Part shown: positions 1,563 through 43,792 of the stretch, in pieces
Layout of the letters: each line of letters begins with the position of its first letter
Position numbering within the stretch: position 1 is the first letter of the stretch
From: an uncultured virus (IMG/VR IMGVR_UViG_3300048839_001435)
Lineage: Duplodnaviria; Heunggongvirae; Uroviricota; Caudoviricetes
Reading direction: 5' to 3' (one strand)
DNA: 43,792 nucleotides
IMG/VR virus record: IMGVR_UViG_3300048839_001435
The notes under the pieces: model-generated
The model's database searches: none
What the model saw: the letters and a program-made list of their open reading frames with translations, nothing else
Told to the model about the DNA's origin: nothing
Position numbers and translations under genes: made by a program

Positions 1563-1599
1563 AGAACCGGACCCTAGCACTGGGGTGAGACACCACGGT

Positions 1600-8431: not shown

Positions 8432-9398
8432 CTACGCGCAGTCGGTACCGGAGAGTGGGCTCCGGAATTCCGTGCTTCCATGCAGCCGCGTACACGCTCA
8501 TTCCTCGTGAGACATCGGCCATCGCAGCGTCCATCTGAAGTTTGGTCCACCGGGGGGCGTCCCGTCGGTCTTGGGCGATGATGTATCCCACATAAATCGG
8601 GTCTTCATCTAGCAGTCGAACGATCTCGTCCTGCTTGAAGCCCAGTGCGACCGCTTCTGCGACATTGTCGCGGCGTACAGCGTCTGCCCCGCGAGGACGT
8701 CGCACGGGAATGCCTTCTCGCCGCAGGATTCTCAACACACGTGGCGTAGGCACTCCAACACGAATGGAGATCTCGGTCGCGGACACCCCCTCTCTGGCGA
8801 GCGCGAGAAGTTGTTCAACAGGCGTTGGCGTAGTCGCGCTAGAGCCTCGGGGGCGCACAGGAATTCCAGCAGCGCGGACGAGGTCCGTTACACTCGGGCG
8901 TGATACGCCAGTGCGCTCCGCGATCTCCCGCAGCGCCATTCCCCGCCTGGCGAACTCCAGTACCTGTTGCTTGGCCTCTTCCGTCAGTTTGACGCGCGGC
9001 GGTTGACGTGCGACTGGAACTCCAGCGGCGTGCATATAGTTCCGCGCTTGGGCGTACGACATCCCAATACGCTGCGAGATTTCCCGTGCACTCGCCCCTT
9101 GACGAATAAGCTCCAACACCTTCTCTTTGTCCGCCATCCAACGGCCCCTGGGCTGCACGGGAATTCCGGCTTGACGCATGTACCTCATAACGGTCTTTGG
9201 CGTCATACCGATTCGCTGTGCGATCGCGTTCGCGGACATACCGCGCCGGGCGAACTCCAGCGCCTGCTGTTTGTACTCCTCTGGCCACGTCTGTTTGCCG
9301 TGCAGATCCTGTTCGGGGCTGCGGCGCCCGGCGACTGCGGTCATCAGACCGACACCAGTGAGTGCGACCAAACCACTGAGGACGAGGCGCAAATCCAT
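8397..9398 (-). CDS. Membrane-anchored multi-HTH protein ending in a Psq/CENP-B-like HTH (paralog 2)
   Basis: MDLRLVLSGLVALTGVGLM TM, QDLHG, four clear HTH repeats, then WTKLQMDAAMADVSRGMSVYAAAWKHGIPEPTLRYRL. TG-G-TACTAT lies 7 nt before ATG 9398. Confidence 0.8.
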   Translation of the reverse strand: MDLRLVLSGLVALTGVGLMTAVAGRRSPEQDLHGKQTWPEEYKQQALEFARRGMSANAIAQRIGMTPKTVMRYMRQAGIPVQPRGRWMADKEKVLELIRQGASAREISQRIGMSYAQARNYMHAAGVPVARQPPRVKLTEEAKQQVLEFARRGMALREIAERTGVSRPSVTDLVRAAGIPVRPRGSSATTPTPVEQLLALAREGVSATEISIRVGVPTPRVLRILRREGIPVRRPRGADAVRRDNVAEAVALGFKQDEIVRLLDEDPIYVGYIIAQDRRDAPRWTKLQMDAAMADVSRGMSVYAAAWKHGIPEPTLRYRLRVAKSTPSGPSGG

Positions 9399-9426
9399 AC
9401 CTCTGATAGTACCAAAAATCACGGTG

Positions 9427-10425
9427 CTAGGCCACCCCTCCTCCTCCGGGCGCTCTCGGCGCACCCTTGGCTTGGCCCGAACTTGCCGTGCGAAGCCGGT
9501 GCAATACAACAAAATACGACACGTTGTGTTTCAGCGCGGCGGCGTGCGGGGTCATTCCTCGCGCAACATCGGCCAGCGCCGCGCGCACCGCGAGCACCGT
9601 GGCGCTGCGCTGCGGTCTTGCAGCTACATTCGCCACATACAGTGGGTTCTCGTCGAGCAGTTGAACGATCTCGTCCTGCGTGAAACCCAGCTTGAGGGCT
9701 TCCACGACAGCGTCCTGGCGTTCAATAGATGACAGCCCTCGTCGGCCTCCACGCATACGCACTAGGATCGCACCTACGGGCACCCCCGTAGCTTCCGAGG
9801 CATCTCGGCTCGGGATACCGTCGGCAACTAGCTGCAACGCTCGCTGCAGGTCGGCTGGTTGCCAAGTGTCACGCGGGAGGTCCCAAGCCTCGCCACGCAT
9901 GATCTTGTGGCGGATCTGGGCTGAGGCTTCCTCGACTTTGTCTTCCGCGTAGATCAACAGGTATTGAGTGCGGTTGAACTGATCGAGAGTGATCTCGGCG
10001 CCGTACATCATCGCCGGCTGGACGCGGATGGCGTCCAGGGCAACATCACGTTGGTGCGTTCTGGCGGCGCTCGAAAACCCGAGGAGCCAAGGCCGTAGAT
10101 ATTCGAGGAGGACTTGGTTCTCGTCGGAGTAGTCGAGCGGGTCGAACTCGCCGACCTCGACAACAGTGGTGCCGACTGGATCGATGACGCTCTCCGGAGG
10201 GCGGCGCCAGGCGAGCGCGTATCCCGACAGGCCGATACGCCAGCCGACGGGATGCGCACGCAGTCCGAAGACTTGGTGGGGCTCCTTCGGCCATAGCTCG
10301 GGTAGCCGAAGAAACGCCTTTCGAGGATCGATCGGCTGCGAGATGACGGCACTGATGTACGCCGCCCGTGCCGGCGTCAGCCAGTCGACGAGTCCCTTGA
10401 CCTCGTTCAAGTCGTCGACGTTCAT
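9427..10425 (-). CDS. Unknown N-terminal domain plus HTH and Psq-like C-terminal module shared with 8397..9398
   Basis: ATGA overlap with the ART gene stop. LGFTQDEIVQLLDENPLYV aligns with LGFKQDEIVRLLDEDPIYV. Confidence 0.7.
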   Translation of the reverse strand: MNVDDLNEVKGLVDWLTPARAAYISAVISQPIDPRKAFLRLPELWPKEPHQVFGLRAHPVGWRIGLSGYALAWRRPPESVIDPVGTTVVEVGEFDPLDYSDENQVLLEYLRPWLLGFSSAARTHQRDVALDAIRVQPAMMYGAEITLDQFNRTQYLLIYAEDKVEEASAQIRHKIMRGEAWDLPRDTWQPADLQRALQLVADGIPSRDASEATGVPVGAILVRMRGGRRGLSSIERQDAVVEALKLGFTQDEIVQLLDENPLYVANVAARPQRSATVLAVRAALADVARGMTPHAAALKHNVSYFVVLHRLRTASSGQAKGAPRAPGGGGVA

Positions 10426-11222
10426 TCGACGATGCTCCCGCTGTGCAGCGACCAGGTACCCTGGTTGCCTGTGGCGCTCTTGATCTGCCACGGCTCGAAG
10501 GCGATGTACGAGAGCCCGCCGCCTTCGATGGTGTTGCGGTAGATGACTCCGTCGTAGCCCTTGGCCACGAGGTAGTCCTTGACGCTGTTGCCGAGTTCCT
10601 CGGCGGCAATCTCCCGAGGCGTCGTCGTGTAGTCCGAGGACTCGTCGAGCACCTCGCCGAGCGCGTACGCGTACGCCTCCGCTTTGGTCATGCACTCGTC
10701 GTTGACGATGGCGTACGGTGGCGGTGTGCCGGGACCGCAGTCCTCGTCGACGGTCTCGAAGTCGCCGAAGGCTTCGATCCAGTCGTCGATCTCGCGGCTG
10801 TCGCCATGCTCGTAGATGAACGCGATCAGCTCCTCGTCGGAATCGAAGTAGATCGGGTTCTCGATGCGGAGGTAGACCGGAATCACCCGCGGCCACGCGG
10901 GCTGCTCGACGTGCCTGGCCTCGACGAATCGCCGCTGATCCCAGGTCGCTGCCTCACCCTTGGCGAAGCGGGCCGCGAGCTGGGCGTCCGCCGTGAAGTG
11001 CGGGCCGATGTACGCCCCAGGATCGTTGGAACCGGAGATGACGATCTCGCGCTCCCAGTCGTTCTCGCCGGGGAGGTACTGCGTCCCCGTAGCGAACTCG
11101 ACGAAGTCCAGCGGCGACCGCGTCGCGTGATAGACGACGAGCGGCGCGCCAGCATCGGTGACGATCTTGGAGCGCCCGAACCAGTGCCAGAACTTGTCGT
11201 TGAGTGGCGCGGCGCCGAGCAT
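10422..11222 (-). CDS. ADP-ribosyltransferase-like protein (ART-PolyVal type)
   Basis: FWHWFGRSKIV..GAPLVVYHAT, PVYLRIENP, KGYDGVIY, YIAFEPWQIKSATGNQGT: the signature of ART domains in polyvalent proteins. Confidence 0.75.
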   Translation of the reverse strand: MLGAAPLNDKFWHWFGRSKIVTDAGAPLVVYHATRSPLDFVEFATGTQYLPGENDWEREIVISGSNDPGAYIGPHFTADAQLAARFAKGEAATWDQRRFVEARHVEQPAWPRVIPVYLRIENPIYFDSDEELIAFIYEHGDSREIDDWIEAFGDFETVDEDCGPGTPPPYAIVNDECMTKAEAYAYALGEVLDESSDYTTTPREIAAEELGNSVKDYLVAKGYDGVIYRNTIEGGGLSYIAFEPWQIKSATGNQGTWSLHSGSIVE

Positions 11223-11240: not shown

Positions 11241-11256
11241 GATCGGAGCTGCGATC
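11241..11256. promoter_or_regulatory. 16-bp palindromic operator copy GATCGGAGCTGCGATC
   Basis: 5 nt upstream of minus-strand TAGGCT (11230-11235), which lies 7 nt before the ART start. Confidence 0.8.
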
Positions 11257-33247: not shown

Positions 33248-33565
33248 TCACCGGCGGCGCCGGCCCAGCCCGTAGTTCTGCTTCTTCTCCAGCTGGCGCG
33301 CCGCCGCCCACTCCATCTCGAAGTTGGCGTTGTAGATGCGCAGCAGCGTGAAGATGGAGATGAGTCCCGAGGCCAGCACAGCGCCGGCGAACGCCTTCCT
33401 GGCGGGCACGCCCACCGCCAGAAACGGCGGCGCGATCATCAGGGTCCGTGCGATCGTCCACCCGGCGAGCCTGATGCCACTGCCGTTCTTCTTCTCCAGT
33501 ACGTCGGCGACCGTACGATAGGTTGGCAGCGCAGGGGTTGTGGCGTCTTCAACGTCGTCGTTCAT
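33248..33565 (-). CDS. Small membrane protein ending GLG-RRRR
   Basis: Two hydrophobic segments, basic tail after GLG. Confidence 0.7.
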   Translation of the reverse strand: MNDDVEDATTPALPTYRTVADVLEKKNGSGIRLAGWTIARTLMIAPPFLAVGVPARKAFAGAVLASGLISIFTLLRIYNANFEMEWAAARQLEKKQNYGLGRRRR

Positions 33566-33572
33566 GACTATC

Positions 33573-34403
33573 TCACTTGCGCCCCGATGAACGCGCCAGC
33601 CGGCGCAGGTTGGCGAGGAAGTTCTTCCACGAACGATGATCGCTCGGCGTGCTCGCGGCGAATGCGATGCTGCCGTTGGGGTGCGTCCAGCGGTAGTGGC
33701 CGCCCTTGGTCTTGGTGACCGTCCAGCCCTCGCGACGCAGCTCCTCGGCGACCGTGGAGTCCACGCGCTTGAAGATCCGGCGGATGTCCCGCTGGTCCAG
33801 GGGCTTCGGCCCTTGCAAGGCCGGCGCAGCCGGCGCAGCCGACGATGCGCGCCGCCTGAGCGCGATGGCGAACAGTGCGATGATCGCCAGGCCGCCGACC
33901 GCTATCCACTTCGTGGTGTCGGTGATCTGGATCGCCGACGTCGCGGAGCCCTTCTGCGCACGCGTATCCGACGGCGGCGACGAAACCGCCATCCGGTTGA
34001 TGGCCGCCTGAGTCTCGGCGTCGTACGCCGCGAGCCACGCAGCCAGCTTCTCGCGCGCGGCGGGCAGCCCCAGCACCTGCTGGAGTCCGGCCTCGCGCTG
34101 GAGCCCCAGCTTCTGGACGATCGTCGCCGCGGTACCGCTCGGCGCCTGGAACACGAACGGGACGACGATCTTGGCGGCAGCCAGCGGCTTGCGTACCTCG
34201 GCGTAGAATGCCTGCGGGCTCCACAGCACGACGTTGCGCCCATCGGCTTCGTGGTACTGCACGAGTTCGCCAGTGCCGCCGATCAGGAAGAGCGCATTCG
34301 GTCGGCTCAGCTCAGTCAACAGACTTCGTTGCCCTGCCGACGACGCCGCACGGCTCCGCTGGTACGCTTCGATCGACATCGGCACTGTCGTCCCCAGTTG
34401 CAT
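33573..34403 (-). CDS. Membrane carrier protein fused to a C-terminal HicA-like RNase domain
   Basis: MQLG start (TGATG-coupled), TM KWIAVGGLAIIALFAIAL, linker APALQG, then EGWTVTKTKGGHYRWTHPNG...STPSDHRSWKNFLANLRR. Confidence 0.8.
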   Translation of the reverse strand: MQLGTTVPMSIEAYQRSRAASSAGQRSLLTELSRPNALFLIGGTGELVQYHEADGRNVVLWSPQAFYAEVRKPLAAAKIVVPFVFQAPSGTAATIVQKLGLQREAGLQQVLGLPAAREKLAAWLAAYDAETQAAINRMAVSSPPSDTRAQKGSATSAIQITDTTKWIAVGGLAIIALFAIALRRRASSAAPAAPALQGPKPLDQRDIRRIFKRVDSTVAEELRREGWTVTKTKGGHYRWTHPNGSIAFAASTPSDHRSWKNFLANLRRLARSSGRK

Positions 34404-34849
34404 CACAGGCGGTCTCCGTAGGTACGGTAGAAGTAGATGCCGGCGGCGACGCCGCCGATGACCAACGCAGGCACGAGGTACTTGCGCCACGGCGACTCTT
34501 CGTAGGTCGCCTTGACCATGAACGCCTCGACGAATCGCAGCGCGACGGCCACGGTGGGCCCTGCGTCGATTGCGCTGTCGCCGTCACCCTCGTCGGCGAC
34601 GTTGTCGAGCGGGAACGGCATGAAGATCAGCCGTTCGACCGTCAGGCGGTCCCACGCAGCTTTCTGCTGCGCGAGCAGGGACTGCGGCCACCAGACGACC
34701 TTGCGGCCCGACAGCGTCATCACCGGCGTCACGACTGCGCGTGGCGACCTGGCGATCCGCGCGGTGCTGTAGCCGGCGGTCTTGAGTCCGCGCAGGTAGC
34801 CGCGCAGGTCCCTCACGACGGCCAGATCCTCCGGCGAGTCCAGCAGCAT
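34403..34849 (-). CDS. C-terminally anchored membrane protein
   Basis: TM YLVPALVIGGVAAGIYFY, translational coupling. Confidence 0.7.
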   Translation of the reverse strand: MLLDSPEDLAVVRDLRGYLRGLKTAGYSTARIARSPRAVVTPVMTLSGRKVVWWPQSLLAQQKAAWDRLTVERLIFMPFPLDNVADEGDGDSAIDAGPTVAVALRFVEAFMVKATYEESPWRKYLVPALVIGGVAAGIYFYRTYGDRL

Positions 34850-34856
34850 CGTCACG

Positions 34857-35447
34857 TCACACCGTCGCAGCTGCGCCGCGCCGCTCGGCGCGAACGGCAC
34901 GAACCAGGTTGTAGAGCGAGACGGCGACGACCGCGCTCGTCGAGAGCGCGGTCAGCAGGAACATCCGACGGCGGTGATTCTCCTCCGCGATGAGCACCTG
35001 CGCCTGCCAGGGCGCCAGTGACGGATCGAGGGTCGGCGCCGTCCCCGGAACGGTGCCTGGCGTCGTCGGCGGGACCATCGTGTCGCCCAGCCCAGGGCCG
35101 GGCCCGACGCCAGGCGTCCACGGCGGCGGCATGTAGCCGTTCGCGGTCCGGATCCAGCCGCTCCGCACGGGCGTGTACCCCCGGTGCGGCGCCAGCTCGG
35201 CATCGGTCGGGATGCCGCCCAGCACTCGGCGCACCGACGGACCGGCCACGCCGAACGGCGCGCGGAACGGTGCGCCCAGTGCCGTGTCGTAGTAGAACCC
35301 CTGCTCCCCGCGTTGGTTGTAGTAGGGATCGAACGGCGGCAACTGAGGCGCGTTGTCCGGGCCCGAGCTGGTGATCTCCCAGGGGTAGGCGTTCTTGATC
35401 TGGCCGTACGGCGTCAGGACGATGCCGAGCTGCGAACCGGATGGCAT
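34857..35447 (-). CDS. Pro/Gly-rich membrane protein with several LG motifs
   Basis: SQLG, ALG, VLGG, GLGD, C-terminal TM. First gene after an operator and TG-A-TAGGCT. Confidence 0.75.
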   Translation of the reverse strand: MPSGSQLGIVLTPYGQIKNAYPWEITSSGPDNAPQLPPFDPYYNQRGEQGFYYDTALGAPFRAPFGVAGPSVRRVLGGIPTDAELAPHRGYTPVRSGWIRTANGYMPPPWTPGVGPGPGLGDTMVPPTTPGTVPGTAPTLDPSLAPWQAQVLIAEENHRRRMFLLTALSTSAVVAVSLYNLVRAVRAERRGAAATV

Positions 35448-35464
35448 GTCAGCAGCCTATCACG

Positions 35465-35480
35465 GATCGCAGCCGCGATC
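35465..35480. promoter_or_regulatory. 16-bp operator copy GATCGCAGCCGCGATC
   Basis: 5 nt upstream of minus-strand TAGGCT (35454-35459), which lies 6 nt before ATG 35447. Confidence 0.85.
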
Positions 35481-35481
35481 T

Positions 35482-35784
35482 CTAGCGAGACTTGATCCGC
35501 TTGTACACGCGGACGCCGCCGTAGGCGAGTGCGCCGCCGAGGGCGATGCCGAACAGCAGCTGCCCGATCGACGTTCCGGCGCCGGCGAGCTGGAGCGTCT
35601 TGCGCCCGAGGCCAGTCCCGGCGTTGGCGGGGTTGGTCCACCAAGTCGTCTGGCCCACGCACTTGGGGCACCCAAGGGCGGCGTCGTCGATCAGCTGCCT
35701 GGACGGCGTCGCGTCGATCTGGAGAGACGTCGTGCCCGGAGCGACTCCGACGGCATCGACGAACCTGACGTTCTGGATGCTCAT
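35482..35784 (-). CDS. Small membrane protein sharing VGVAPGTT with the putative capsid protein
   Basis: ATGA-coupled start MSIQNV, ALG, GLG, LAG, C-terminal TM plus basic tail. Confidence 0.75.
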   Translation of the reverse strand: MSIQNVRFVDAVGVAPGTTSLQIDATPSRQLIDDAALGCPKCVGQTTWWTNPANAGTGLGRKTLQLAGAGTSIGQLLFGIALGGALAYGGVRVYKRIKSR

Positions 35785-36032
35785 CGGAACGTTCCCTTCT
35801 TGTCGAGGTAGTAGTACGTGCCGCCCGCTGCAGCGATGCCGATCAGGACGAAGCTCCACCACGGGATCGCGCCGGGCAGATCCGGCGACAGCGGACCCGG
35901 TGTGATCGTCAGCCCGGCGTCGGACTGCGGGCCTGGCGTCGTCGCGACTTGCGTCGTGCCGCTGCCCGATGACGTGGGGAACGTCTTCGGCCGAAGATCG
36001 AAGACGTTCCTGAACAGATTGCCGGTCAGCAT
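35781..36032 (-). CDS. Small C-terminally anchored membrane protein
   Basis: RBS AGGAG, starts MLTG, TM WWSFVLIGIAAAGGTYYYL. Confidence 0.75.
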   Translation of the reverse strand: MLTGNLFRNVFDLRPKTFPTSSGSGTTQVATTPGPQSDAGLTITPGPLSPDLPGAIPWWSFVLIGIAAAGGTYYYLDKKGTFR

Positions 36033-36118
36033 CAGAATCTCCTGGCCTGCCAGTAGGACCACGCCGCCGCCAGACTGGCGACGCCGAACAGCACGGACAA
36101 CCCTGCGATCGTCTTCAT
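36032..36118 (-). CDS. 28-aa single-TM microprotein (not in the ORF track)
   Basis: MKTIAGLSVLFGVASLAAAWSYWQARRF, GAGGA RBS, TGATG overlap with the next gene. Confidence 0.6.
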   Translation of the reverse strand: MKTIAGLSVLFGVASLAAAWSYWQARRF

Positions 36119-36125
36119 CGAGTCC

Positions 36126-36281
36126 TCACTTCTTGAGCACGAGGTAGGCGCCGCCGGCGACGACGACGATGCCCGCAGCGATCAACGCCCACGGTGTCTT
36201 GGACTTCGCCGCAGGCGTGACGAGGTGGCGAGGATCGAAGACCATCAGCCGCGGTTCGACAGCCGAGTCTGCGCGCAGCAT
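36126..36281 (-). CDS. 51-aa single-TM protein (not in the ORF track)
   Basis: Ends PWALIAAGIVVVAGGAYLVLKK, the same YLVLKK end as the upstream gene. Confidence 0.7.
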   Translation of the reverse strand: MLRADSAVEPRLMVFDPRHLVTPAAKSKTPWALIAAGIVVVAGGAYLVLKK

Positions 36282-36284
36282 GGT

Positions 36285-37103
36285 TCACTTCTTCAGCACG
36301 AGGTAGAGCCCTCCGAGGAGGACGATGCCGCCCGCGATCGCGAGGCCGACCGTCGTCGGATTCCACGCCGAAGGCGCCGAGGGAAGGAACCCACCGGCCT
36401 CGCCGGCGGCGCCGCGCCGCTTGGCGATGTAGATCTGGATCCCAACCGCCAGCGGCTTGGCCGAGGTGCGGACGAAGTTCGTCGCTGCGGTCGTGACGGT
36501 CTTGCTGATCAGGGCGCCCTGCAGCGCCGCCGTCATCGCCAGGCGCATCGTCTCGCCGCCCTTGATGTCGCCGGAGACGTACGCCATCGAGTTGGCGAGG
36601 GCGCTGAGCGTGCCGTAGTTGACGACGCCCGTGATGCCTCCGGGGTCAGTGTTCAGTCCGAGCGCTGCTAGATCCGTGAGCGCCTGCTGGAGCGCTGCAA
36701 CGCCGTCTCCGGGGACGTCGTTGGGGGCGTCCTTCATGTTGGCCGCTGGCACCCACCCCAGACCGCCCGTCGAGTAGACCTGCCACCAGCCGCCGCTGAC
36801 GGCCAGCACCTTGACCCGCGTGTTGATGCCGAGCGTACCGATCGTCTTGGACTTGGCGTTCGGCTGCTGGTAGACCGCGGTCGACTTCGTGGCGACGGCG
36901 GGGAAGCCGCCGCTGTCCGCTGCTCCGAGCGGCCCGTAGAGCGCTGCGCCGTCTGCGTAGTTGGCGTTGACCTCGGGCGACGGCGTCCACTCGGCGGGCG
37001 TCCGCGCCATCGAGCCGGCCGGTCCGCCACTGTAGACGTGGATCGGATAGGCACCTGGCATCCCTAGCCCGGCCGAGCCCATGTTCAGGCGGATGTGGGT
37101 CAT
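36285..37103 (-). CDS. SH3b plus peptidoglycan-binding-like domain protein with C-terminal TM
   Basis: AVYQQPNAKSKTIGTL...GWWQV...GWVPAANM (SH3b), VAALQQAL...PGGITGVVNYGT (PG_binding_1-like), N-terminal GLG and PLG. Confidence 0.75.
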   Translation of the reverse strand: MTHIRLNMGSAGLGMPGAYPIHVYSGGPAGSMARTPAEWTPSPEVNANYADGAALYGPLGAADSGGFPAVATKSTAVYQQPNAKSKTIGTLGINTRVKVLAVSGGWWQVYSTGGLGWVPAANMKDAPNDVPGDGVAALQQALTDLAALGLNTDPGGITGVVNYGTLSALANSMAYVSGDIKGGETMRLAMTAALQGALISKTVTTAATNFVRTSAKPLAVGIQIYIAKRRGAAGEAGGFLPSAPSAWNPTTVGLAIAGGIVLLGGLYLVLKK

Positions 37104-37123
37104 ATGCACCCGAGGCTATCTCA

Positions 37124-37139
37124 GATCCCAGCTGCGATC
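37124..37139. promoter_or_regulatory. 16-bp operator copy GATCCCAGCTGCGATC
   Basis: Between the divergent SH3b and transglutaminase genes, 5 nt from minus-strand TAGCCT. Confidence 0.8.
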
Positions 37140-37175
37140 TAGCGGTAGGTTTTGAGATCGCGTATGTTGGAAGCC

Positions 37176-37925
37176 ATGGCGTTCCGTACTCCTCCTTGGT
37201 TTCCGGCGGCGTTCGCAGCTGGAGCGGCTCTGATCGGCGTCGGAGGGTACTGGTGGCTTCGTCGGCAGAACCTACAGTCACGGCTCGCGGGGCCCAGCTA
37301 CGGGCTGGGCCGCACCAGCCAGGTCATCGAAGACCTGGCACCACAGGCGCCGCTGCTGGAGACGAACAAGGTCGGCGACATGGTCGTGCGGCACTTCCGC
37401 CAGAAAGACATGCCGATCGAGACGCGCGTCCGACACATCCAGGACCTGACCTGGAAGTCGATCATGGACCCGCGGATGCGCAAGATCGCGCTGGCGATCA
37501 CGCACAGCTGCCCCGAGCGCGACGTGATGTGTGAGGCACGCGCGATCTACAAGGCCGTCAAGAACCGCGTGCGCTACACTGGCGATGTCGGAGTGGTCAA
37601 GCAGCCGTCTGGCGCCGAGGAAGGCGTCGACCTGTTCCAGTCCGCGTACCGGACGTGGGAGTTCCGCGGAGGCGACTGCGACGATCAGAGCATCCTCGTC
37701 AGCACGCTGCTGGCGCTCAACGGCATCACGCCGCGGCTGCGCGTGACCGCCGAGAAGAAGAAGAACGCCGACTACGGACACATCTACCCGGTGTTCGGCA
37801 CGCCGAAGATCACCCCCAAGAAGTGGGTCGGCATCGACACCACGCTGCCGGGCAAGAACAACTTCGGCAAGGAAGCGCCGTTCGCGCGGGACATCAACTT
37901 CATCGTCCGCGACGTCGCCGCCTGA
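37176..37925 (+). CDS. Membrane-anchored transglutaminase-like cysteine protease
   Basis: N-terminal TM, LAG and GLG linker, VRYTGD, triad GDCDD / YGHIYP / WVGID. Confidence 0.85.
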   Translation: MAFRTPPWFPAAFAAGAALIGVGGYWWLRRQNLQSRLAGPSYGLGRTSQVIEDLAPQAPLLETNKVGDMVVRHFRQKDMPIETRVRHIQDLTWKSIMDPRMRKIALAITHSCPERDVMCEARAIYKAVKNRVRYTGDVGVVKQPSGAEEGVDLFQSAYRTWEFRGGDCDDQSILVSTLLALNGITPRLRVTAEKKKNADYGHIYPVFGTPKITPKKWVGIDTTLPGKNNFGKEAPFARDINFIVRDVAA

Positions 37926-37958
37926 CGGCGGCGCCCAATCTTTCTGGAGATCATTCCG

Positions 37959-38228
37959 ATGACGCAGATCGACGTTCCCGTTTCTCTCCTCGGCCTCAAC
38001 GAAGCTGCCTCGTGGAAGCGCTCGGCGTTCGCCGTCGTGTCCCTCGCCTCTGGCGCGCTGTCGGCGTACCACGGCACCAAGCGCAACAACTCCATCGGCT
38101 GGGGCATCGCCTGGGGTCTGCTCGGCGGTGCGTTTCCGATCCTGACGCCGGCGATCGCCTTCGGTCAGGGCTTCGCCAAGCGCAAGTCGGGCAGCCTCAG
38201 CGGCGCGCGACGTCCCGGGCGCTGGTAG
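37959..38228 (+). CDS. Small membrane protein ending LSG-ARRPGRW
   Basis: SAYHGTKRNNSIGWGIAWGLLGG, RBS GGAG. Confidence 0.75.
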   Translation: MTQIDVPVSLLGLNEAASWKRSAFAVVSLASGALSAYHGTKRNNSIGWGIAWGLLGGAFPILTPAIAFGQGFAKRKSGSLSGARRPGRW

Positions 38229-38265
38229 TGGCGCCGCATTGACTTTCCTCGTCGGGAGACCGACG

Positions 38266-38514
38266 ATGAAGTTCATGCGCCGCCCGAGCTTCGATGCTGC
38301 CGAAGTTGCCGAACGTCTGACTCGCGCTGCCAAGGCGGCCAAGCGCGGCAACTGCGGCGAGGCGTTGGTCCAGCTGGAGCACGTCCCCGACGAAGCTGCG
38401 CTCGATCAGGAGACGCGGGTCTGGCGCGCGCGGGTCAAGAAGCTCGCAGCGCGCTGCGTCCGCGACGTCGGCCTCCACGGGCGCGTCTTGCGCAAGCGCA
38501 AGAAGCGCAAGTAG
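38266..38514 (+). CDS. Small basic protein ending GLHG-RVLRKRKKRK
   Basis: RBS GGGAG before ATG 38266. Confidence 0.65.
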   Translation: MKFMRRPSFDAAEVAERLTRAAKAAKRGNCGEALVQLEHVPDEAALDQETRVWRARVKKLAARCVRDVGLHGRVLRKRKKRK

Positions 38515-38515
38515 C

Positions 38516-38752
38516 TCACGCGACGGGGGGCACCGGCGGCAACGGCGGCAACGCCACCGGCTTGCGCAGCTGCTTGACCGCGTAGATGGCCCCGAGCACC
38601 GCGCCGGTGATCGCGATGCCGATGCCGAGCGCACCGAGATCCTGCCAGGTGCTCCACGGCTGCTGGCTTTCGGCCTCCAGCTCCTCGGCCTCGTCCGACG
38701 CGGACTGCGTCTGCTGCTGAGCTACGATGTCTACCAGGGGCGACGGATCCAT
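38516..38752 (-). CDS. Small single-TM protein
   Basis: LGALGIGIAITGAVLGAIYAV, TAGAAT 6 nt before the ATG. Confidence 0.7.
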   Translation of the reverse strand: MDPSPLVDIVAQQQTQSASDEAEELEAESQQPWSTWQDLGALGIGIAITGAVLGAIYAVKQLRKPVALPPLPPVPPVA

Positions 38753-38761
38753 AGGGGTATT

Positions 38762-39922
38762 CTACTCCAGGCGCATGAACCAGTACACAGGCTCACCAGA
38801 AGCTGCGAGGACGAAGAACCCCGGGGCGTTGCGCGATATTCTCGATCCTGCCACGTGCCTCGGGTAGATCGCGATCGTACTGTTCGGAAAGCGCGCGGGG
38901 TTGACGTGCTGCGTGAAAGTATCTCCGGTCTCGACGGGCCAGCCTCGCCCAAGATCGCTGATCCGTCCTGTATCGTCGAAGACCAGCGGAAACTGAAGGT
39001 AGCGCATACCGAAGCTGAAGGGCGGAGGCAACAGCACGAACCGTTCACCACTGGAAAACATCCGCAGTGTCTCTGCGGAGGCAAACTCTCGAAGAGCTAC
39101 CACAGCTTCTAGCTCCTCAGCCTCAGGCACACGGCGCAGCACCCAATCGCTCATGGTGACGTCAGGCGGTAGGTTTGGAGCCAAGCCATACCGCATTGGC
39201 TCGCGCGGATGCAGGATGTCCTCGTCGATCTGGGCTCGGATGCGAACCTCGGCATCCGCGACCAGCTCGAAAGTGAATTCGCCGTTGTGGCGGTCCAACA
39301 CCAGCGATGGTGCCGTGCGGACGTCTCCTGCGGGCCAGTAGATCAGTTGGTACTCTCCATCGGCATACACGCGTCCGAAGGAAGTCGCGAGGTGTTTCAG
39401 GTAGCTCTCGGTGTAGTCGCTAGGGTCGAGCGTGGACTTGACGAAGACGTACGCCCGCGTAACGACGTCTGCTGAGTAAACGCCGTGCGCATGTGCTGCG
39501 ACGTGTCCACCAAGGACAGCGTGCATGGCCGCCATCGTCAGCTCGGGGTGCATGCGCGAGGAGAAGACCGCAGACCTCGACGGAAAGATCGGAGTGGATA
39601 CGAACCACTTGTAGCCTTCGGCGCCTCGCCAGTAGGACAACGTCGGCTCGTTCCGACGCTGGGCGAGCCACATGGTCTCGACGTACAGTGGGTGATCCGT
39701 GCTCCACGGTGCGCGACCAACGCTGAAGTGAATCGAGCGCGCGTCGTAGGCTGCGTTCACGATCGCATCGAGCGCCCAGAACACACGCTCGACGTCCTGC
39801 GCTGGGATGGATTGCCATACCCCCAGCAGATAGCCGGCCTTCTCCATCGCGTACGGATCCGGCTGAAGCACCTCGGCGAGCACCTCAACGGGGATGTGGC
39901 TTGGGTGCGCGAACGCCGTCAC
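38762..39922 (-). CDS. Hypothetical protein with weaker codon bias
   Basis: 386-aa ORF, TG-G-TAGGGT 6 nt before the GTG. Confidence 0.7.
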   Translation of the reverse strand: MTAFAHPSHIPVEVLAEVLQPDPYAMEKAGYLLGVWQSIPAQDVERVFWALDAIVNAAYDARSIHFSVGRAPWSTDHPLYVETMWLAQRRNEPTLSYWRGAEGYKWFVSTPIFPSRSAVFSSRMHPELTMAAMHAVLGGHVAAHAHGVYSADVVTRAYVFVKSTLDPSDYTESYLKHLATSFGRVYADGEYQLIYWPAGDVRTAPSLVLDRHNGEFTFELVADAEVRIRAQIDEDILHPREPMRYGLAPNLPPDVTMSDWVLRRVPEAEELEAVVALREFASAETLRMFSSGERFVLLPPPFSFGMRYLQFPLVFDDTGRISDLGRGWPVETGDTFTQHVNPARFPNSTIAIYPRHVAGSRISRNAPGFFVLAASGEPVYWFMRLE

Positions 39923-39947
39923 CGTCCGACCCTACCACGGAGGGCTG

Positions 39948-39963
39948 GATCGCTGCTGCGATC
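39948..39963. promoter_or_regulatory. 16-bp operator copy GATCGCTGCTGCGATC
   Basis: 6 nt upstream of TAGGCT (39970-39975, preceded by TG-C), between divergent genes. Confidence 0.85.
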
Positions 39964-39988
39964 AAGTGCTAGGCTCGAAACCACCAAC

Positions 39989-40450
39989 ATGCTCGGCTTC
40001 ATCCCGGACTTCCAGTTCTCGCCGGACGCGAACATCAACCCGTACGTCAATCCGACGGTGTCGATGCCGTCTGGGATGTACCAAGCCGGCATCTACACGA
40101 CGCAGCCCACCTACAGCGGATCGCCGTCGGTCACGCCGCCGCCGCCAGATCCCATGTCGTGGAGCGTTCGCGGCATCCACTGGAACTGGCGCAACCCCGG
40201 CGCGCCGCCGTGGGCGTACAACCCGTCTGGCCTCGGCTACGTGATGGCGTGGCCGCAGCCGCCCGTCGCCGGCGCCGTCAAGGCGCTCGCCGGTCCGGTC
40301 GCCGGCCCGCGGATCACGGCGCTGCCGCCGTCCATGGTCGCCGCGCTCGCCGACGGCGGCTTCGTGTCCACGCACAAGTGGAAGCTGCTCGCCGGTCTGC
40401 TCGGCCTCGGCGCCGGCTACTTCGCGTACACCCGCTACCTCGCGAAGTGA
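39989..40450 (+). CDS. Pro-rich membrane protein, starts MLG, C-terminal TM
   Basis: MLG, SGLG, ALAG, TM KWKLLAGLLGLGAGYFAY. Confidence 0.75.
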   Translation: MLGFIPDFQFSPDANINPYVNPTVSMPSGMYQAGIYTTQPTYSGSPSVTPPPPDPMSWSVRGIHWNWRNPGAPPWAYNPSGLGYVMAWPQPPVAGAVKALAGPVAGPRITALPPSMVAALADGGFVSTHKWKLLAGLLGLGAGYFAYTRYLAK

Positions 40451-40459
40451 GCCCTGGCG

Positions 40460-40828
40460 ATGGACTACACCGACGAGGACTACCAGAACCTGGGCGAGCA
40501 GCACAGCTTCACCAAGGACTATGGCCTCGGTGAAGTCGAACTCGTCGACGGGCCTCCGGCGGACAGCGTCTTCATCGACGCCTCCGGCAACTGGGTCTAT
40601 CCCACGACGCCGCTGCAGATCGGCCCCCGTGGCGTTCTCGGGGGCGTGGTCGACACGTTCAAGAGCATCTGGGGCGGAGCCAGCAGCACCGCCGAAGGCG
40701 CGGCCGACGTCTACGCGTGGTGGCAGATGCACAAGCGCAAGATCTACATCGGCACCGCGCTCGTCGTCGGCGTCGCTGGCGGTCTCCTGCTGTGGCGCAT
40801 CGTCGCCGGCAGCGACTCGCGGCGCTAG
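40460..40828 (+). CDS. C-terminally anchored membrane protein
   Basis: NLG, YGLG, VLGG, TM IYIGTALVVGVAGGLLLW. Confidence 0.75.
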   Translation: MDYTDEDYQNLGEQHSFTKDYGLGEVELVDGPPADSVFIDASGNWVYPTTPLQIGPRGVLGGVVDTFKSIWGGASSTAEGAADVYAWWQMHKRKIYIGTALVVGVAGGLLLWRIVAGSDSRR

Positions 40829-41104
40829 CTAGTCGTCCTTCTTCGGGTCGGGTAGTGGCGGACGCTCCGTGGCGCCGGGCGCGTGGCCGAGGCGGCTGCG
40901 CTCAGCCTGCTGCTGCTTCAACGCGCCGACGACATCGACGGGATCGAACCTGTACTGCTCGCCGACGCGGAAGAACGGAATCGTGCCCGTCTTGACGTAG
41001 CGGTGCACCGTCGGCAGCGAGATGCGCAGGTAGTCGGCCAGCTCCCGCGGCGACATCACGCGCTGAGGTGCCAGCGGAGTTGGTGCTTTCGGCCTTCGCG
41101 ACAT
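40829..41104 (-). CDS. Excisionase/MerR-like HTH (HTH_17) DNA-binding protein
   Basis: MSPRELADYLRISLPTVHRYVKTGTIPFFRVGEQYRF. Confidence 0.88.
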   Translation of the reverse strand: MSRRPKAPTPLAPQRVMSPRELADYLRISLPTVHRYVKTGTIPFFRVGEQYRFDPVDVVGALKQQQAERSRLGHAPGATERPPLPDPKKDD

Positions 41105-41253
41105 TCGTCCTGCGATAGTGCCGCAGCAACTGCACGACGTCCAGCAAACGCGAAGTCGGCTGGAATCGCGTAGTTCGCTCGTGCAGGGCGTAAAACCAGT
41201 GATCATGTCGAGTCACCAACGCAACCCGCGAAAACTCCTGCGAAAACCCCATT

Positions 41254-41269
41254 GATCGCAGCAGCGATC
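41254..41269. promoter_or_regulatory. 16-bp operator copy GATCGCAGCAGCGATC
   Basis: 5 nt upstream of TAGCCT (41275-41280), ATG at 41291. Confidence 0.85.
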
Positions 41270-41290
41270 CGCGTTAGCCTGTTGAACATC

Positions 41291-41881
41291 ATGGCACTCA
41301 ACAAGCACGGCGCCGAGGCGCACTTCGTTCGTCCCGACCGCGTCGGGTACACCAGTGTCCTCCAGGCGATCCCCGGCTACCAGCCGGTGCAGAACGCGCA
41401 GGAAGTCGCCTGGCGCTTCGTCGGAGCGCCGTTCTACTCGACGGGTCCCGGCACGTTCGCCGGTGCCTTCGGCGCGCCGAAGATGTCGCTGCGGGATCGC
41501 CTGCGGATGTTCTTCTTCAAGTTCAAGGTCCGCCAGCAGCAGCGCGCCATCGCGAAGGTCGCGGCGCTGCCGGCGCCGCAGCCCAACGTGCCCGCGGTCG
41601 CCGAGTCGACGCCGGCGCAGGCGCACGTCACCCGCGACGCCGCCGCTCTGGCGATCACGGCGGGCATCGTGCAGTCGGGTTCGCAGCTGGTTCCGGCCGG
41701 GGTCGTTCGCCCCGAGGTCGTCGCCGGCTCGCGCATCAGCTACAGCACGGCCGTCGGCGAGCCGTTCGGCTTCTCGTCGCTGATCACCTCGCAGGTGCAG
41801 AACCCGTACATCGGGCAGCTGGCTGCCGAGAGCGCCTGGCACAAGTTCTTCTTCCAGCGCACCCGCGGCCTGGGGCGCTAG
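41291..41881 (+). CDS. Putative structural protein ending RGLGR
   Basis: Strong codon bias, preceded by an operator. Confidence 0.7.
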   Translation: MALNKHGAEAHFVRPDRVGYTSVLQAIPGYQPVQNAQEVAWRFVGAPFYSTGPGTFAGAFGAPKMSLRDRLRMFFFKFKVRQQQRAIAKVAALPAPQPNVPAVAESTPAQAHVTRDAAALAITAGIVQSGSQLVPAGVVRPEVVAGSRISYSTAVGEPFGFSSLITSQVQNPYIGQLAAESAWHKFFFQRTRGLGR

Positions 41882-41899
41882 TTCCTCGCTGATCGCGTC

Positions 41900-42232
41900 A
41901 TGGCGAAGCAGAGCAGCATCCTCACGCTCGACGGTCCGGATCTCGGACAAGTGGTCGATCCGTACGAGCCGTACCAGCCGGAGCCCGTGACTCCGGCGGC
42001 GCCTGCGCGCCCTCGCAAGAAGCAGAAGAAGGCCGCGCAGCCGAAGGCCGCCGCGAAGCACGTCCCCCTGCCCACCAACCCCAACGTCGGCGACTGCGCC
42101 TGTCGGTGGAACTGGCGCAAGCAGCGCTGGGCGCGGCTGTGCTTCGTTGGCAAGGGCAACGGCCCCGGGCAGTCGCGCTCGGGCTGGATCGTCCGCGGCA
42201 ACGGCTCGACCTGCGAGGTCACCAAGAAGTAG
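41900..42232 (+). CDS. Basic Lys/Pro-rich protein with Cys-containing C-terminal domain
   Basis: LDGPDLG near the N-terminus, RPRKKQKK, CACRW...LCF...TCE. Confidence 0.7.
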   Translation: MAKQSSILTLDGPDLGQVVDPYEPYQPEPVTPAAPARPRKKQKKAAQPKAAAKHVPLPTNPNVGDCACRWNWRKQRWARLCFVGKGNGPGQSRSGWIVRGNGSTCEVTKK

Positions 42233-42311
42233 TTCGTGAAATCGGCGCTCAGGTGAGCCTCACCCGCGCTGAAACTGTTCAACCCCCGCAACGACACACA
42301 GGAGAATGCAC

Positions 42312-42962
42312 ATGTCCAGCTTGATGGGTGAGGTCGATCTTCTCGGCCTCGACGAGTTCGGTCAGAACCCCGGGATGCGCACCGTCTACGGTGCCCTGAT
42401 CGGCGCTGGCGTCGCCAGCGTCGCGACGGTCGCCGCCAAGAACCTCACCGACCCGGGCACCTGGGCGAACGACAACGCGGAGTGGGTCGGCCTCGGCGCC
42501 GGCCTGCTCACCGCCGGCGCGATGTACGCGATGCCGGGCACCCGCCACGCGGCGGTGTGGGCCGCGGGCACCGCGGCGCTGAGCCTCGGCGTCATCGCGA
42601 TCGCCAAGAAGGTCCTCGGCGGTGGCGGCGTCCTGGGCGGCCTCGGCATCCCGTCGGCGGGTCCGGTCCCGCAGGTGTACGGCGCGGGCCTCGGCCTGCC
42701 GGGCATCTACGCGCCGGCGCCGGTCGCCAACATCGCGCCGGGCTACTCGGGCGCGACGAACGCCGGTCTCGCCGAGGCGAGCATCGGGCCGGTGCCGCAG
42801 GTGTACGGCACGGGTCTGTCGGGTCCGCAGCTGGGCTCGCAGGTCCCCGTCAGCCTGCTCGGCAACAGCCTCGGCGCGCAGCAGGCGTCGCTCCTGGGCG
42901 GCCCGCTGACCGACGGCCTCTCGGCGATGTACGGCCAGACCGTCTTCGGCGAGGCGCGCTGA
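42312..42962 (+). CDS. Putative major virion membrane protein (about 3 TM) with Gly-rich, LG-punctuated tail
   Basis: RBS CAGGAG, repeat GPVPQVYG twice, many LG/LSG motifs, directly before the putative capsid gene. Confidence 0.75.
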   Translation: MSSLMGEVDLLGLDEFGQNPGMRTVYGALIGAGVASVATVAAKNLTDPGTWANDNAEWVGLGAGLLTAGAMYAMPGTRHAAVWAAGTAALSLGVIAIAKKVLGGGGVLGGLGIPSAGPVPQVYGAGLGLPGIYAPAPVANIAPGYSGATNAGLAEASIGPVPQVYGTGLSGPQLGSQVPVSLLGNSLGAQQASLLGGPLTDGLSAMYGQTVFGEAR

Positions 42963-42976
42963 CGCGCAAGATAGTA

Positions 42977-43035
42977 GATCGCGGCTGCGATCCCAAAATC
43001 GCAGTTGCGATCTCTAGCTGATCGCAGCTACGATA
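42977..43035. promoter_or_regulatory. Triple operator array upstream of the putative capsid gene
   Basis: GATCGCGGCTGCGATC 42977-92, AATCGCAGTTGCGATC 42997-43012, GATCGCAGCTACGATA 43020-35 overlapping TACTGT. Confidence 0.85.
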
Positions 43036-43139
43036 CTGTTCATCGGGAGGCGTGAAGTCTCCCAGGCAAATCACCGGGTCCGCCGGGGCTACATCGGCCC
43101 TCCTGACCCAAACCGACAACCGACTCAGGAGAAAAGCAC

Positions 43140-43792
43140 ATGATCGGCTCCGTAGGCGTGGCACCGGGCACCACCACTCTCAAGCTCCCGGACGGTTCGG
43201 CCATCCAGATCAGCGACTGGATCGACGACCGCTACTACAGCACCATCCAGCTGACGAACGGCCAGAGCACGCCCCTGGAGGCGTTCTCCGCCGGCCGCAG
43301 CCAGACGATCCCGGGCGGCACCCGGACCATGACCCGCGTCGACACGAACGTGCCGCGCTCGGGCGACGGCGGTCTGCCGAAGGACCACGAGATGCTGATC
43401 TACTCGATCGGCGTCTTCATGACGCGCGTGATGCGCGCCAACTCGGCGGGCAACGTCACGCTCGCCGACGCGTCGGGCTCGCTCTCGAACCCGCCGCAGC
43501 TGCAGACCCTGTTCTCGTTCGACCGCGTCACCTTCCTGGAGATGCAGTACAACGGGAAGACCTACTCGTCGGGTGTCATGCAGGACTACCCGCAGGGTCA
43601 CGGCTACTGGCTGTTCACCACGAACAGCGACACCGAGCTGGCGGAGAACGGCGTCCCCTCGCCGCGCGACCGCAACTCGCTCGTCCTGCCGATCCACCTC
43701 CGTGAGCAGCTGTCCTACAAGATGGTGTTCAACCCGGAGGCGGCGGTGGTCATCAGCCAGACCGCGTCCGACGGCGGCACCGCCCTGACGTT
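43140..43792 (+). CDS. Probable major capsid protein (jelly-roll type inferred), truncated by the right edge (absent from the ORF track)
   Basis: Open to the window end: MIGSVGVAPGTTTLKLPDG..YYSTIQL..VDTNVPRSGDGGLPKDHEMLIYSIGV..YPQGHG..ENGVPSP..LVLPIHL. Beta-strand-like pattern, RBS CAGGAG, near-optimal codons, three operators. The CDS is secure, the capsid call is inference. Confidence 0.55.
   Translation, partial: MIGSVGVAPGTTTLKLPDGSAIQISDWIDDRYYSTIQLTNGQSTPLEAFSAGRSQTIPGGTRTMTRVDTNVPRSGDGGLPKDHEMLIYSIGVFMTRVMRANSAGNVTLADASGSLSNPPQLQTLFSFDRVTFLEMQYNGKTYSSGVMQDYPQGHGYWLFTTNSDTELAENGVPSPRDRNSLVLPIHLREQLSYKMVFNPEAAVVISQTASDGGTALT

Follow-up and report, generated by a model that had tools for sequence, protein, structure and literature searches.

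Why do small proteins of unrelated kinds, encoded side by side in an uncultured virus, share a short Gly-Leu-Gly (GLG) motif, and might an enzyme encoded among them cut it? The question is raised by a stretch of 43,792 nt with 65% G+C (IMG/VR record IMGVR_UViG_3300048839_001435), referred to as a whole as the window. Its positions 33248–43792 form a module of 20 genes (g1–g20; 3305 aa), curated from third-position GC content and open reading frame (ORF) structure, in which g9 encodes a transglutaminase-like enzyme and g20 a capsid-like protein. The original prediction held that LG or LxG recurs at set positions in these proteins and marks sites where g9 would cut to free anchored cargo within a lipid-containing bacterial virion. 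Every peptide string that it quoted is present in the window translations. The module does carry a conserved motif specific to it, with GLG at its core, and cleavage of GLG-type sites by g9 is the best, if still tentative, reading of the sequences.

The LG/LxG pattern was fixed in advance by the prediction, and it is in excess when set against composition shuffles. The module has 82 matches versus 54.4 expected (standard deviation 6.5), a count that none of 1000 whole-protein shuffles reaches. The result is similar with 20-residue block shuffles (58.4 expected; 0/1000), for matches outside hydrophobic segments (70 vs. 43.5 expected; 0/1000), and after removal of the glycine-rich g19 (64 vs. 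45.0; 2/2000). The comparison set, which consists of the 42 other called genes of the window (9531 aa), shows no excess, with 131 matches versus 120.0 expected and 137 of 1000 shuffles reaching that count. GLG is the sharper signal, occurring 13 times in the module versus 3.3 expected (0/1000) and twice in the rest of the window versus 4.6 expected. Without g19 the module retains 10 GLG sites against 2.4 expected (0/2000). The codons differ among the 13 sites, hence the signal lies at the protein level; a DNA repeat as its source is ruled out by the same variation.

Close relatives of the region or of the enzyme, at the DNA or protein level, were absent among deposited phages, and a single-sequence scan of IMG/VR likewise returned none. 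Alignment-based scans recovered 19 loci in IMG/VR and 11 in metagenome-assembled genomes (MAGs). The MAG labels conflict (Actinomycetes, Tessaracoccus, Polyangiales, and others), as expected if viral contigs had been mis-binned. The related viral contigs span 77–138 kb and include four relatives of 77.5–85.7 kb (G002–G005; loci L031–L049) classed with terminal repeats and treated as complete. The repeats in these records measure 127, 127, 127, and 90 nt, and those of 127 nt may be assembly overlaps of circular contigs. A conserved gene order of g1, g4, g9, g10, g14, g16, g17, g18, g19, and g20 is shared with the module. Among the 23 loci compared, no orthologue was found for nine other module genes, and g8 has just four, all weak.

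Across the window and the four complete relatives, GLG is overall 3–5-fold over-represented in the module and not elsewhere in those genomes. The module counts are 13 versus 2.5 expected in G002, 10 versus 2.8 in G003, 11 versus 2.6 in G004, and 19 versus 4.4 in G005, each unmatched in 500 shuffles. In the remainder of the same genomes the counts are 9 versus 10.4, 13 versus 11.0, 14 versus 10.8, and 13 versus 10.0, respectively. The excess depends on residue order, as GLG, LGG, and GGL occur 66, 25, and 17 times in the five modules compared to 51, 49, and 57 times in the rest of the genomes. GLG was chosen after viewing alignments, and it later came first in an unbiased ranking of all tripeptides in 11 close loci (106 vs. 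30.3 expected). Loci were also tested singly over the 10 kb upstream of the capsid-like gene. Of 28 informative loci, 10 showed a count matched by no more than one of 300 shuffles, and all 10 belong to the closer clades. No locus passed this threshold over the 10 kb downstream, where the lowest value was 15/300.

These results bear on the simplest deflationary account, in which the motif is a functionless by-product of Gly/Leu-rich low-complexity linkers in a GC-rich genome. The excess survives block shuffling, exclusion of hydrophobic segments, and removal of g19, is sensitive to residue order, and is missing from the rest of the same genomes. GLG also tops the unbiased scan and is conserved at aligned positions between orthologues of 30–50% identity. 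The account is therefore the most remote of those considered here, even with the 65% G+C of the window, the share of g19 in the module counts (11 of 47 LG and 10 of 44 LxG), and the post hoc definition of the refined motif in its favour.

The sites share a wider context. Among the 66 GLG sites of the five modules, Leu stands two residues before in 25 (a 4.2-fold excess), Asn immediately before in 11, and Pro two residues after in 13. The fuller form of the motif is L-x-G-L-G-[ILMR]-P, and the residue preceding GLG across the sites is N, L, A, R, or S. A neighbouring clade (L059, L061, L062, L064, L065, L069, and L070) over-represents GFG rather than GLG (28 vs. 6.1 expected), alongside RRR, and in L070 GLG and GFG occur 10 times each. 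In two more distant clades the unbiased ranking shows no comparable tripeptide excess.

The motif falls outside the membrane helices and is held at aligned positions in orthologues while its flanks differ in sequence and length. In the enzyme, the linker runs from the anchor helix through basic residues to x-L-G-R, with L52 conserved in at least 90% and G53 invariant (n = 32). The g1 proteins continue after their second helix with DAR-x-[TS]-G-L-A-G, a variable spacer, and an RRPxRR tail, with G[LM]xG preceding the tail in 12 of 14 orthologues. The N-terminal M-x-L-G-[IV][IV]L-x-P of g4 keeps LG in 14 of 15 orthologues, and within the protein a basic helix is followed by GLGx-IPTD, with LSGL[GR] ~40 residues ahead of the anchor. 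In g14, LG-[ILMF]-IP-x-[WYF]-QFS is found at the N-terminus of 11/11 orthologues and LxGLG between the N-domain and the anchor. At one alignment position in the middle of g17, GLG is found in 7 of 15 orthologues and [SG]GLR in three more, and all six g18 orthologues carry an N-terminal ...[IVL]MTLSG. The order of helix, basic residues, and xLG recurs in the enzyme, in two helix-turn-helix (HTH) array proteins of the window, and in an EncFtn-like protein of G002.

The prediction had sorted its instances into post-anchor, N-terminal, and pre-basic-tail classes. These classes hold for several families but fail for PLG in g8, which does not lie between an anchor and the SH3b domain as claimed because the membrane helix of g8 is C-terminal. 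Conservation of the quoted instances is likewise mixed. The N-terminal LG of g4 and g14, xLG of the enzyme, and G[LM]xG of g1 are kept, but about half of the instances lie in unconserved genes. LSG-ARRPGRW of g10 is kept in 0 of 13 orthologues. MAQLG at the start of a supposed kinase (11256–12101) is not kept in the sole orthologue of this protein, which has no Pfam match to justify the label. The genes carrying MQLG, MLTG, APALQG, GLHG, QDL[RH]G, and LAG-ARRPRRRR have no orthologue in the loci and genomes compared. In the four complete relatives, orthologues are absent for the HTH arrays, the ADP-ribosyltransferase (ART) gene, the ORF ending LAGARRPRRRR, and most singleton genes. The MLG start placed at 39989 was assigned to the ART but belongs to g14 (MLGFIPDF...); the ART-PolyVal gene lies elsewhere and also starts with MLG. 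Separately, Arg-rich C-terminal tails of the form G-A-RRP-x-RR recur in unrelated proteins, namely LAGARRPRRRR in an ORF ending near 18060(+), LSGARRPGRW in g10 (38196–38228), and RRPKRR or RRPMRR in g1 orthologues.

The claim of a Cys-His-Asp enzyme is borne out. The triad C176, H210, and D229 is invariant in 32 sequences, the predicted fold is transglutaminase/papain-like, and the gene belongs to the module core. The match of the window enzyme to PF01841 (Transglut_core) is marginal (23.4 bits, cut-off 23), with orthologues scoring 28.8 and 29.8 bits, and its 269 homologues at E ≤1e-3 are nearly all metagenomic. The model has a predicted local distance difference test (pLDDT) score of 88.6 and places the core behind an N-terminal helix, both flanks of which are basic (positive-inside rule). 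Residues 44–53, which include GLG, form the only internal low-confidence stretch (pLDDT <50). Searching from the capsid-like gene gave 29 loci, and in 27 of them the enzyme gene is no more than 10 kb away. Of the two exceptions, one is truncated upstream. The other, G006 (L071), is a linear record of 98.5 kb and 88% completeness, the only one without an enzyme match, with one GLG versus 1.6 expected. As a single incomplete record it cannot carry the argument of a no-enzyme control.

Foldseek returns eight matches at E ≤1e-3 for the enzyme model. Under VIA the highest Z scores belong to two structural-genomics entries described as putative proteases, 3kd4 (Z 13.9; root-mean-square deviation (rmsd) 3.0 over 141 aligned residues) and 3isr (Z 11.1). 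These are followed by factor XIII (Z 10.3), the pseudomurein isopeptidase PeiP (Z 10.1), TglA (Z 10.0), the protease LapG (Z 9.5; rmsd 3.7 over 135 residues; Foldseek E 7e-4), the CPR-C4 protease (Z 9.0), and a second pseudomurein isopeptidase, PeiW (Z 9.0). A profile of the enzyme family compared with PDB sequences gave nothing significant and no LapG chain at E ≤1. Proteases, wall isopeptidases, and cross-linkers are all among the structural neighbours, and the fold alone therefore cannot decide between them.

If the enzyme were a genuine transglutaminase, cross-linking virion proteins at donor or acceptor sites marked by the motif, this would suit its structural matches to factor XIII and to transglutaminases 2 and 3 (Z 9.3–10.3) and the LQG present at some sites. 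The prediction had itself raised QLG/LQG as glutamine donors, which is disfavoured because neither Gln nor Lys is conserved around the 66 sites. In addition, the characterised small bacterial members of the fold among the matches are mostly hydrolases. Together these points make cross-linking highly improbable.

No other conserved protease was found across the relatives, and the transglutaminase-like enzyme is the only conserved protease candidate. A trypsin-like peptidase of G003 was rejected as a core protease since G002, G004, G005, and the window all lack it. An adenain- or Ulp1-like maturation protease was also rejected, with no match to Peptidase_C5 (PF00770) or Peptidase_C48 (PF02902) at E ≤1 in any of five related genomes and none in Pfam scans of 50 window ORFs. 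M23 was the sole peptidase in the Pfam scan of G002. It is improbable, though less so than cross-linking, that another protease, from the host or unrecognised in the virus, cuts the motif and that the transglutaminase-like enzyme has a different role. A protease could be hidden among the genes of these viruses, most of which belong to no assigned family, and GLG excess and enzyme presence do not coincide across clades. Against this, no other protease-like gene is conserved, and the enzyme is encoded inside the module and carries the motif itself.

In the preferred reading, the 20 genes form the structural and virion-membrane module of large (77–138 kb) bacterial viruses with a jelly-roll capsid-like protein, an undescribed clade. 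The module proteins would share a short linear motif with a G-L-G core, often extended to L-x-G-L-G and with LG or LxG as weaker forms, situated in flexible linkers that join a membrane anchor to a payload, be it a folded domain, a basic tail, or an N-terminal leader. This motif would be a proteolytic processing site and the anchored Cys176-His210-Asp229 enzyme, which carries it in its own disordered linker between anchor and domain, the protease. Cleavage would free payloads from the viral membrane as the particle assembles or afterwards, with the enzyme itself, the g4 and g14 ectodomains, the basic tails, and the HTH arrays as candidates. A processing site would be the simplest account since the motif is specific to junctions, to residue order, and to the module, is reused in unrelated proteins of both anchor orientations, and is present in the disordered linker of the enzyme. 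The bond proposed to be cut is the last of L-x-G-L|G. A predicted complex of enzyme residues 55–257 with g4 residues 1–155 scored 0.24 against a mark of 0.32 and is counted neither way.

Several observations weigh against cleavage by this enzyme. Enzyme and motif are not coextensive, because clades whose capsid genes are more distant keep the enzyme without a GLG excess. Upstream of that gene GLG occurs twice in both L066 (2.6 expected) and L067 (2.5 expected), and in L072–L078 the observed count is reached by 72–167 of 300 shuffles. Only 10 of the 28 loci pass the per-locus threshold. Post-anchor x-L-G-R is a family-wide trait of the enzyme, shared even by the L066/L067 clade, and may therefore be a structural feature of the enzyme; the linker likewise keeps x-L-G-R in the clades for which it was read (L050–L070), the clade preferring GFG included. 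In most g4 and several g14 orthologues LG lies two to four residues from the start, and trimming so few residues would be odd for an endoprotease. Cell-wall isopeptidases are among the fold neighbours, and the enzyme could equally be one of these carried in the virion; true transglutaminases (Z 9–10) occur there as well. Some of its genomic neighbours bind peptidoglycan, with SH3b in g8 and a weak PG_binding_3 match in L002 (E 0.002). Orthologues of g19 carry tandem 11-residue LNGLG-x-P repeats, which suit multivalent binding as well as a cleavage site. Finally, genes in the relatives were called with a simple GC3-based caller that placed some on the wrong strand, and the related genomes share ancestry and are not independent samples.

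The adenovirus analogy, on which the prediction leaned, is similarly divided. According to PMC4246237, the adenovirus protease sites are (M/I/L)XGG-X and (M/I/L)XGX-G, and pVI is cut at IVGL|G. The form L-x-G-L-G has the shape of the second type, and [MIL]xGxG is enriched in the modules of the four relatives (14 vs. 5.7, 13 vs. 4.5, 11 vs. 5.1, and 22 vs. 7.9 expected; 0–5 of 500 shuffles), in which [MIL]xGGx is not clearly enriched. In the module of the window neither pattern is enriched ([MIL]xGxG 7 vs. 5.6; [MIL]xGGx 9 vs. 5.7), which again counts against cleavage.

Many of these points suit an uncleaved docking or hinge motif, linking membrane proteins with the capsid shell or with each other during assembly, and an enzyme that acts as a virion cell-wall endopeptidase or isopeptidase alongside the SH3b protein at entry. 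This alternative better explains the g19 repeats, the LG sites at residues 2–4 of most g4 orthologues, and the enzyme-bearing clades without GLG excess. It would also accommodate the family-wide x-L-G-R, the matches to PeiP (Z 10.1) and PeiW (Z 9.0), the adjacent g8, and the PG_binding_3 neighbour in L002. However, separate wall hydrolases are already encoded in G002 (a GH25 protein with PG_binding_1, and an M23 peptidase) and in G003 (a PG_binding_1 endolysin-like gene), and no docking partner was identified. Release by cutting would predict the observed placement at junctions, which occurs in both orientations and beside such dissimilar payloads as HTH arrays and an EncFtn-like protein. Docking is thus a serious contender that remains somewhat doubtful, and cleavage by the anchored enzyme is retained as the tentative preference.

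The particle itself is approached through g20, the most conserved gene of the module. Its orthologues share 37–71% identity in 21 loci and 55–71% in the close clade, with a full length of ~235 aa. The model is a jelly roll (pLDDT 75.3) that matches the SPV1 capsid protein in VIA (Z 7.2; rmsd 4.5, 135 aligned; Foldseek probability 0.95, E 0.04), followed by STIV, HHIV-2, HCIV-1, and P23-77 VP17 (Z 6.2–6.6) and P23-77 VP16 (Z 5.2). Such Z scores support a common fold, not kinship. In a language-model search the nearest named clusters were PM2 P2 and PRD1 P3, at scores of 0.76–0.77 that serve as a lead only. Single-sequence comparison of the L002 orthologue of g20 and of window positions 1522–3327 with PDB sequences gave nothing significant.

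Hallmarks of tailed phages were not recognised. Terminase_6N was absent from five records. Pfam scans covering 93 proteins of G003 and 98 of G002, and PHROG searches of 54 and 41 of them, returned neither a terminase nor a portal or HK97 capsid gene, although divergent forms are possible. The same scans of G003 and G002 turned up no packaging ATPase of the FtsK/HerA type, and the only proteins found with a Walker A motif resemble helicases or a primase-helicase. A viral lineage of ~80 kb that lacks recognisable versions of the three tailed-phage genes is notable in itself. The lipid-containing virion of the original prediction is plausible, given a jelly-roll g20 closest to capsids of membrane viruses and a hydrophobic helix in ~14 of 20 module genes, and a tailless lipid-containing particle is a reasonable inference from these models. 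The contigs may represent unusually large membrane-containing tailless phages.

The features of the window are collected in Table 1. Only four of the 20 module genes (g9, g8, g16, and g2) are named by Pfam or PHROG searches. By hydrophobicity, a helix is present in 14 of 20, mostly as a single C-terminal anchor followed by a few basic residues. The g17 helix probably results from a misplaced start, and the C-terminal helix of g14 is slightly under the threshold.

Table 1. Genes of the module and selected genes elsewhere in the window.
Gene	Position	Strand	Features
HTH-array gene	7841..8431	+	membrane-anchored; helix, GRRSHEQDLRG, HTH repeats; outside the module
HTH-array gene, paralogue	8397..9512	-	membrane-anchored; helix, GRRSPEQDLHG, HTH repeats
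ART-PolyVal gene	10422..11222	-	ADP-ribosyltransferase; PF18760 E 1.8e-14
g1	33248..33565	-	two-helix membrane protein; basic C-terminal tail ending ...NYGLGRRRR; GLG codons 33263-33271; orthologues in 14 loci, 27-74% identity
g2	33573..34403	-	N-domain, membrane helix 163-185, APALQG, HicA-like C-terminal domain; no orthologue among 23 loci compared
g3	34403..34900	-	tail-anchored, lineage-specific; helix 140-158, then RTYGDRL; no family match (Pfam, PHROG), no orthologue in 23 loci
g4	34857..35447	-	conserved, tail-anchored; N-terminal ...QLG|IVLTPYG, internal VLGG-IPTD, GPGLGD; GLG codons 35085-35093; 15 orthologues
g5	35482..35784	-	tail-anchored; TGLGRK; N-terminus repeats VGVAPGTT motif of g20
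g6	35781..36032	-	small, tail-anchored; starts MLTG; no orthologue in 23 loci
g7	36126..36281	-	51-aa tail-anchored protein
g8	36285..37109	-	SH3b protein (PF08239, SH3_3, E 6e-9); C-terminal helix 251-274; two GLG, codons 37062-37070 and 36756-36764
g9	37152..37925	+	membrane-anchored transglutaminase-like Cys-His-Asp enzyme; post-anchor linker ...SYGLGRT...; GLG codons 37302..37310
g10	37959..38228	+	conserved small membrane protein; C-terminal LSGARRPGRW; 13 orthologues, ending GFGK[RP]K
g11	38239..38514	+	small basic-tailed protein (GLHGRVLRKRKKRK), lineage-specific
g12	38516..38752	-	small membrane protein
g13	38762..39922	-	386 aa; no family match, no orthologue in 23 loci, no GLG
g14	39989..40450	+	conserved, tail-anchored; N-terminal MLG|FIPDFQFS, internal PSGLGY; no Pfam match; 11 orthologues
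g15	40460..40828	+	tail-anchored; DYGLGE
g16	40829..41206	-	HTH_17 DNA-binding protein (PF12728 E 7e-12); 18 orthologues
g17	41252..41881	+	conserved; ends ...TRGLGR; 15 orthologues
g18	41900..42232	+	small basic Cys-rich protein; N-terminal ...ILTLDG; 6 orthologues
g19	42306..42962	+	glycine-rich membrane protein; three GLG; 18 orthologues
g20	43140..43790	+	candidate jelly-roll major capsid protein; runs off the window; no GLG

Several module genes deserve separate comment. The HicA assignment of g2 (PF07927) falls under the cut-off (20.3 bits vs. 27; E 6e-4) and is accompanied by matches to phrog_2089 (E 3e-13) and to phrog_353, annotated as a toxin (E 2e-4). The start of g5, ...VDAVGVAPGTTSLQI, copies the conserved N-terminal VGVAPGTTT[LI] of g20, and g5 could be a membrane protein that mimics the N-terminal arm of the capsid protein. 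The form of g18 is C-x-C ... C-F-V-G-K ... R-S-G-W, with an extra Pro/Lys-rich insert of ~45 residues in the window copy, and the protein may be a DNA-associated core protein. Gene fusions occur in relatives. In L007 and L009 the g14 N-domain continues, directly after LxG(L)G, into a membrane anchor of the g10 type, and the g4 and g1 orthologues share a single open frame in L002:5397-6182(-).

The enzyme has a nearly invariant Cys pair at residues 120 and 127 (CPERDGxCE) besides the catalytic Cys, and a thioredoxin-like gene stands near the structural genes in G003 (L034:12603-12965) and G002 (L038:9445-9801). Together they hint at disulfide chemistry in the particle. In G007–G009 (L075, L076, and L078), which belong to the most distant clade, the enzyme matches fall in two pieces within frames of 344–507 aa, once with an in-frame TGA. 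The catalytic domain may carry an insertion, or the gene may be broken or recoded.

Elsewhere, the window encodes an SNF2 helicase, a UvrD-type helicase, the ART-PolyVal gene, and the two paralogous HTH-array proteins, and one further protein looks like a primase-helicase. The HTH-array genes lie tail-to-tail with a 35-nt overlap, and membrane-tethered DNA-binding arrays of this kind are unusual. Two of the complete relatives encode a DNA polymerase A-UDG fusion, SNF2, ThyX, an integrase, endolysin-type genes, and the thioredoxin-like gene, and a tailspike-like pectate-lyase protein is present in G003. G002 encodes an RIIA-like protein (L037:4205-6286(-); phrog_612 E 6e-90) in a virus without recognisable tailed-phage hallmark genes. 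It also encodes the EncFtn-like (encapsulated-ferritin-like) domain (L036:10380-10907(-); E 7.8e-10), preceded by an N-terminal membrane helix and KTAKTRPLG. As cargo, a ferritin-like protein anchored in a viral membrane would be odd.

Site-specific maturation proteases that reuse a consensus are textbook knowledge for adenoviruses, poxviruses, African swine fever virus, and T4. To our knowledge none has been described for prokaryotic jelly-roll or membrane-containing viruses. A limited check of the literature turned up neither a description of the lineage nor a report of a transglutaminase-like maturation protease for any membrane-containing phage. The closest parallel is the adenovirus protease AVP (MEROPS C5), likewise a virus-encoded cysteine enzyme whose short Gly-containing consensus is reused in many virion proteins, with basic peptides and membrane-active proteins among the candidate substrates here. 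However, AVP belongs to another fold family, whereas the enzyme here is membrane-anchored, is encoded by a virus of bacteria, and cleaves by prediction.

Other systems share single aspects of the proposed mechanism. The internal proteins of phage T4 carry capsid-targeting leaders that are removed by the prohead protease gp21. As in the present proposal, a targeting element loads the cargo, which a viral protease then releases by cutting at a short consensus. In T4, however, the prohead protease is of the serine type, its site is LxE, and a protein scaffold is used, whereas the targeting element proposed here is a membrane anchor and the enzyme has a papain-like fold. The cut site of LapG is a di-alanine. 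LapG shares with g9 the superfamily fold and Cys-His-Asp chemistry, and with the proposal a single cut at a small-residue motif that releases an anchored protein. It differs as a soluble periplasmic enzyme of cellular origin under LapD control, and the likeness to g9 is at the fold level only. According to PMC3032545 and PMC4694147, LapG is a transglutaminase-like cysteine protease that frees the anchored adhesins LapA and CdrA. PeiW and PeiP of methanogen viruses are also virus-encoded Cys enzymes of the transglutaminase fold, but cut isopeptide bonds of the cell wall, carry wall-binding repeats, and show no sequence-level match to g9, which has an N-terminal anchor instead.

Among viruses with internal membranes, the Sphaerolipoviridae (P23-77, HHIV-2, HCIV-1, and SH1), SPV1, STIV, PRD1, and PM2 resemble the present clade in the jelly roll of g20 (Z 5.2–7.2) and in having many small membrane proteins near the capsid gene. 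Known viruses of this type have genomes far smaller than the 77–138 kb found here, and differ further in that no packaging ATPase was recognised in the present lineage. We know of no maturation protease in any of them.

A broader scenario would follow from the preferred reading. The clade would have evolved, independently of adenoviruses, an anchored protease that cuts L-x-G-L|G sites and thereby frees itself and a changing, membrane-tethered cargo inside a jelly-roll particle with an internal membrane. That cargo, destined for the next host, would include the HTH arrays, the HicA-like nuclease, the EncFtn-like protein, and Arg-rich peptides, and anchoring with subsequent release would be a general principle of cargo loading in prokaryotic membrane-containing viruses. 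In this full form the scenario is unlikely, more so than docking.

Even if cleavage proves wrong, the conserved, module-specific G-L-G motif and a lineage of ~80 kb without tailed-phage hallmark genes stand. If it is right, the motif would predict at the sequence level which proteins of an uncultured virus clade are packaged and processed. It would also give transglutaminase-fold enzymes a new role and represent a convergence with the maturation of adenoviruses.

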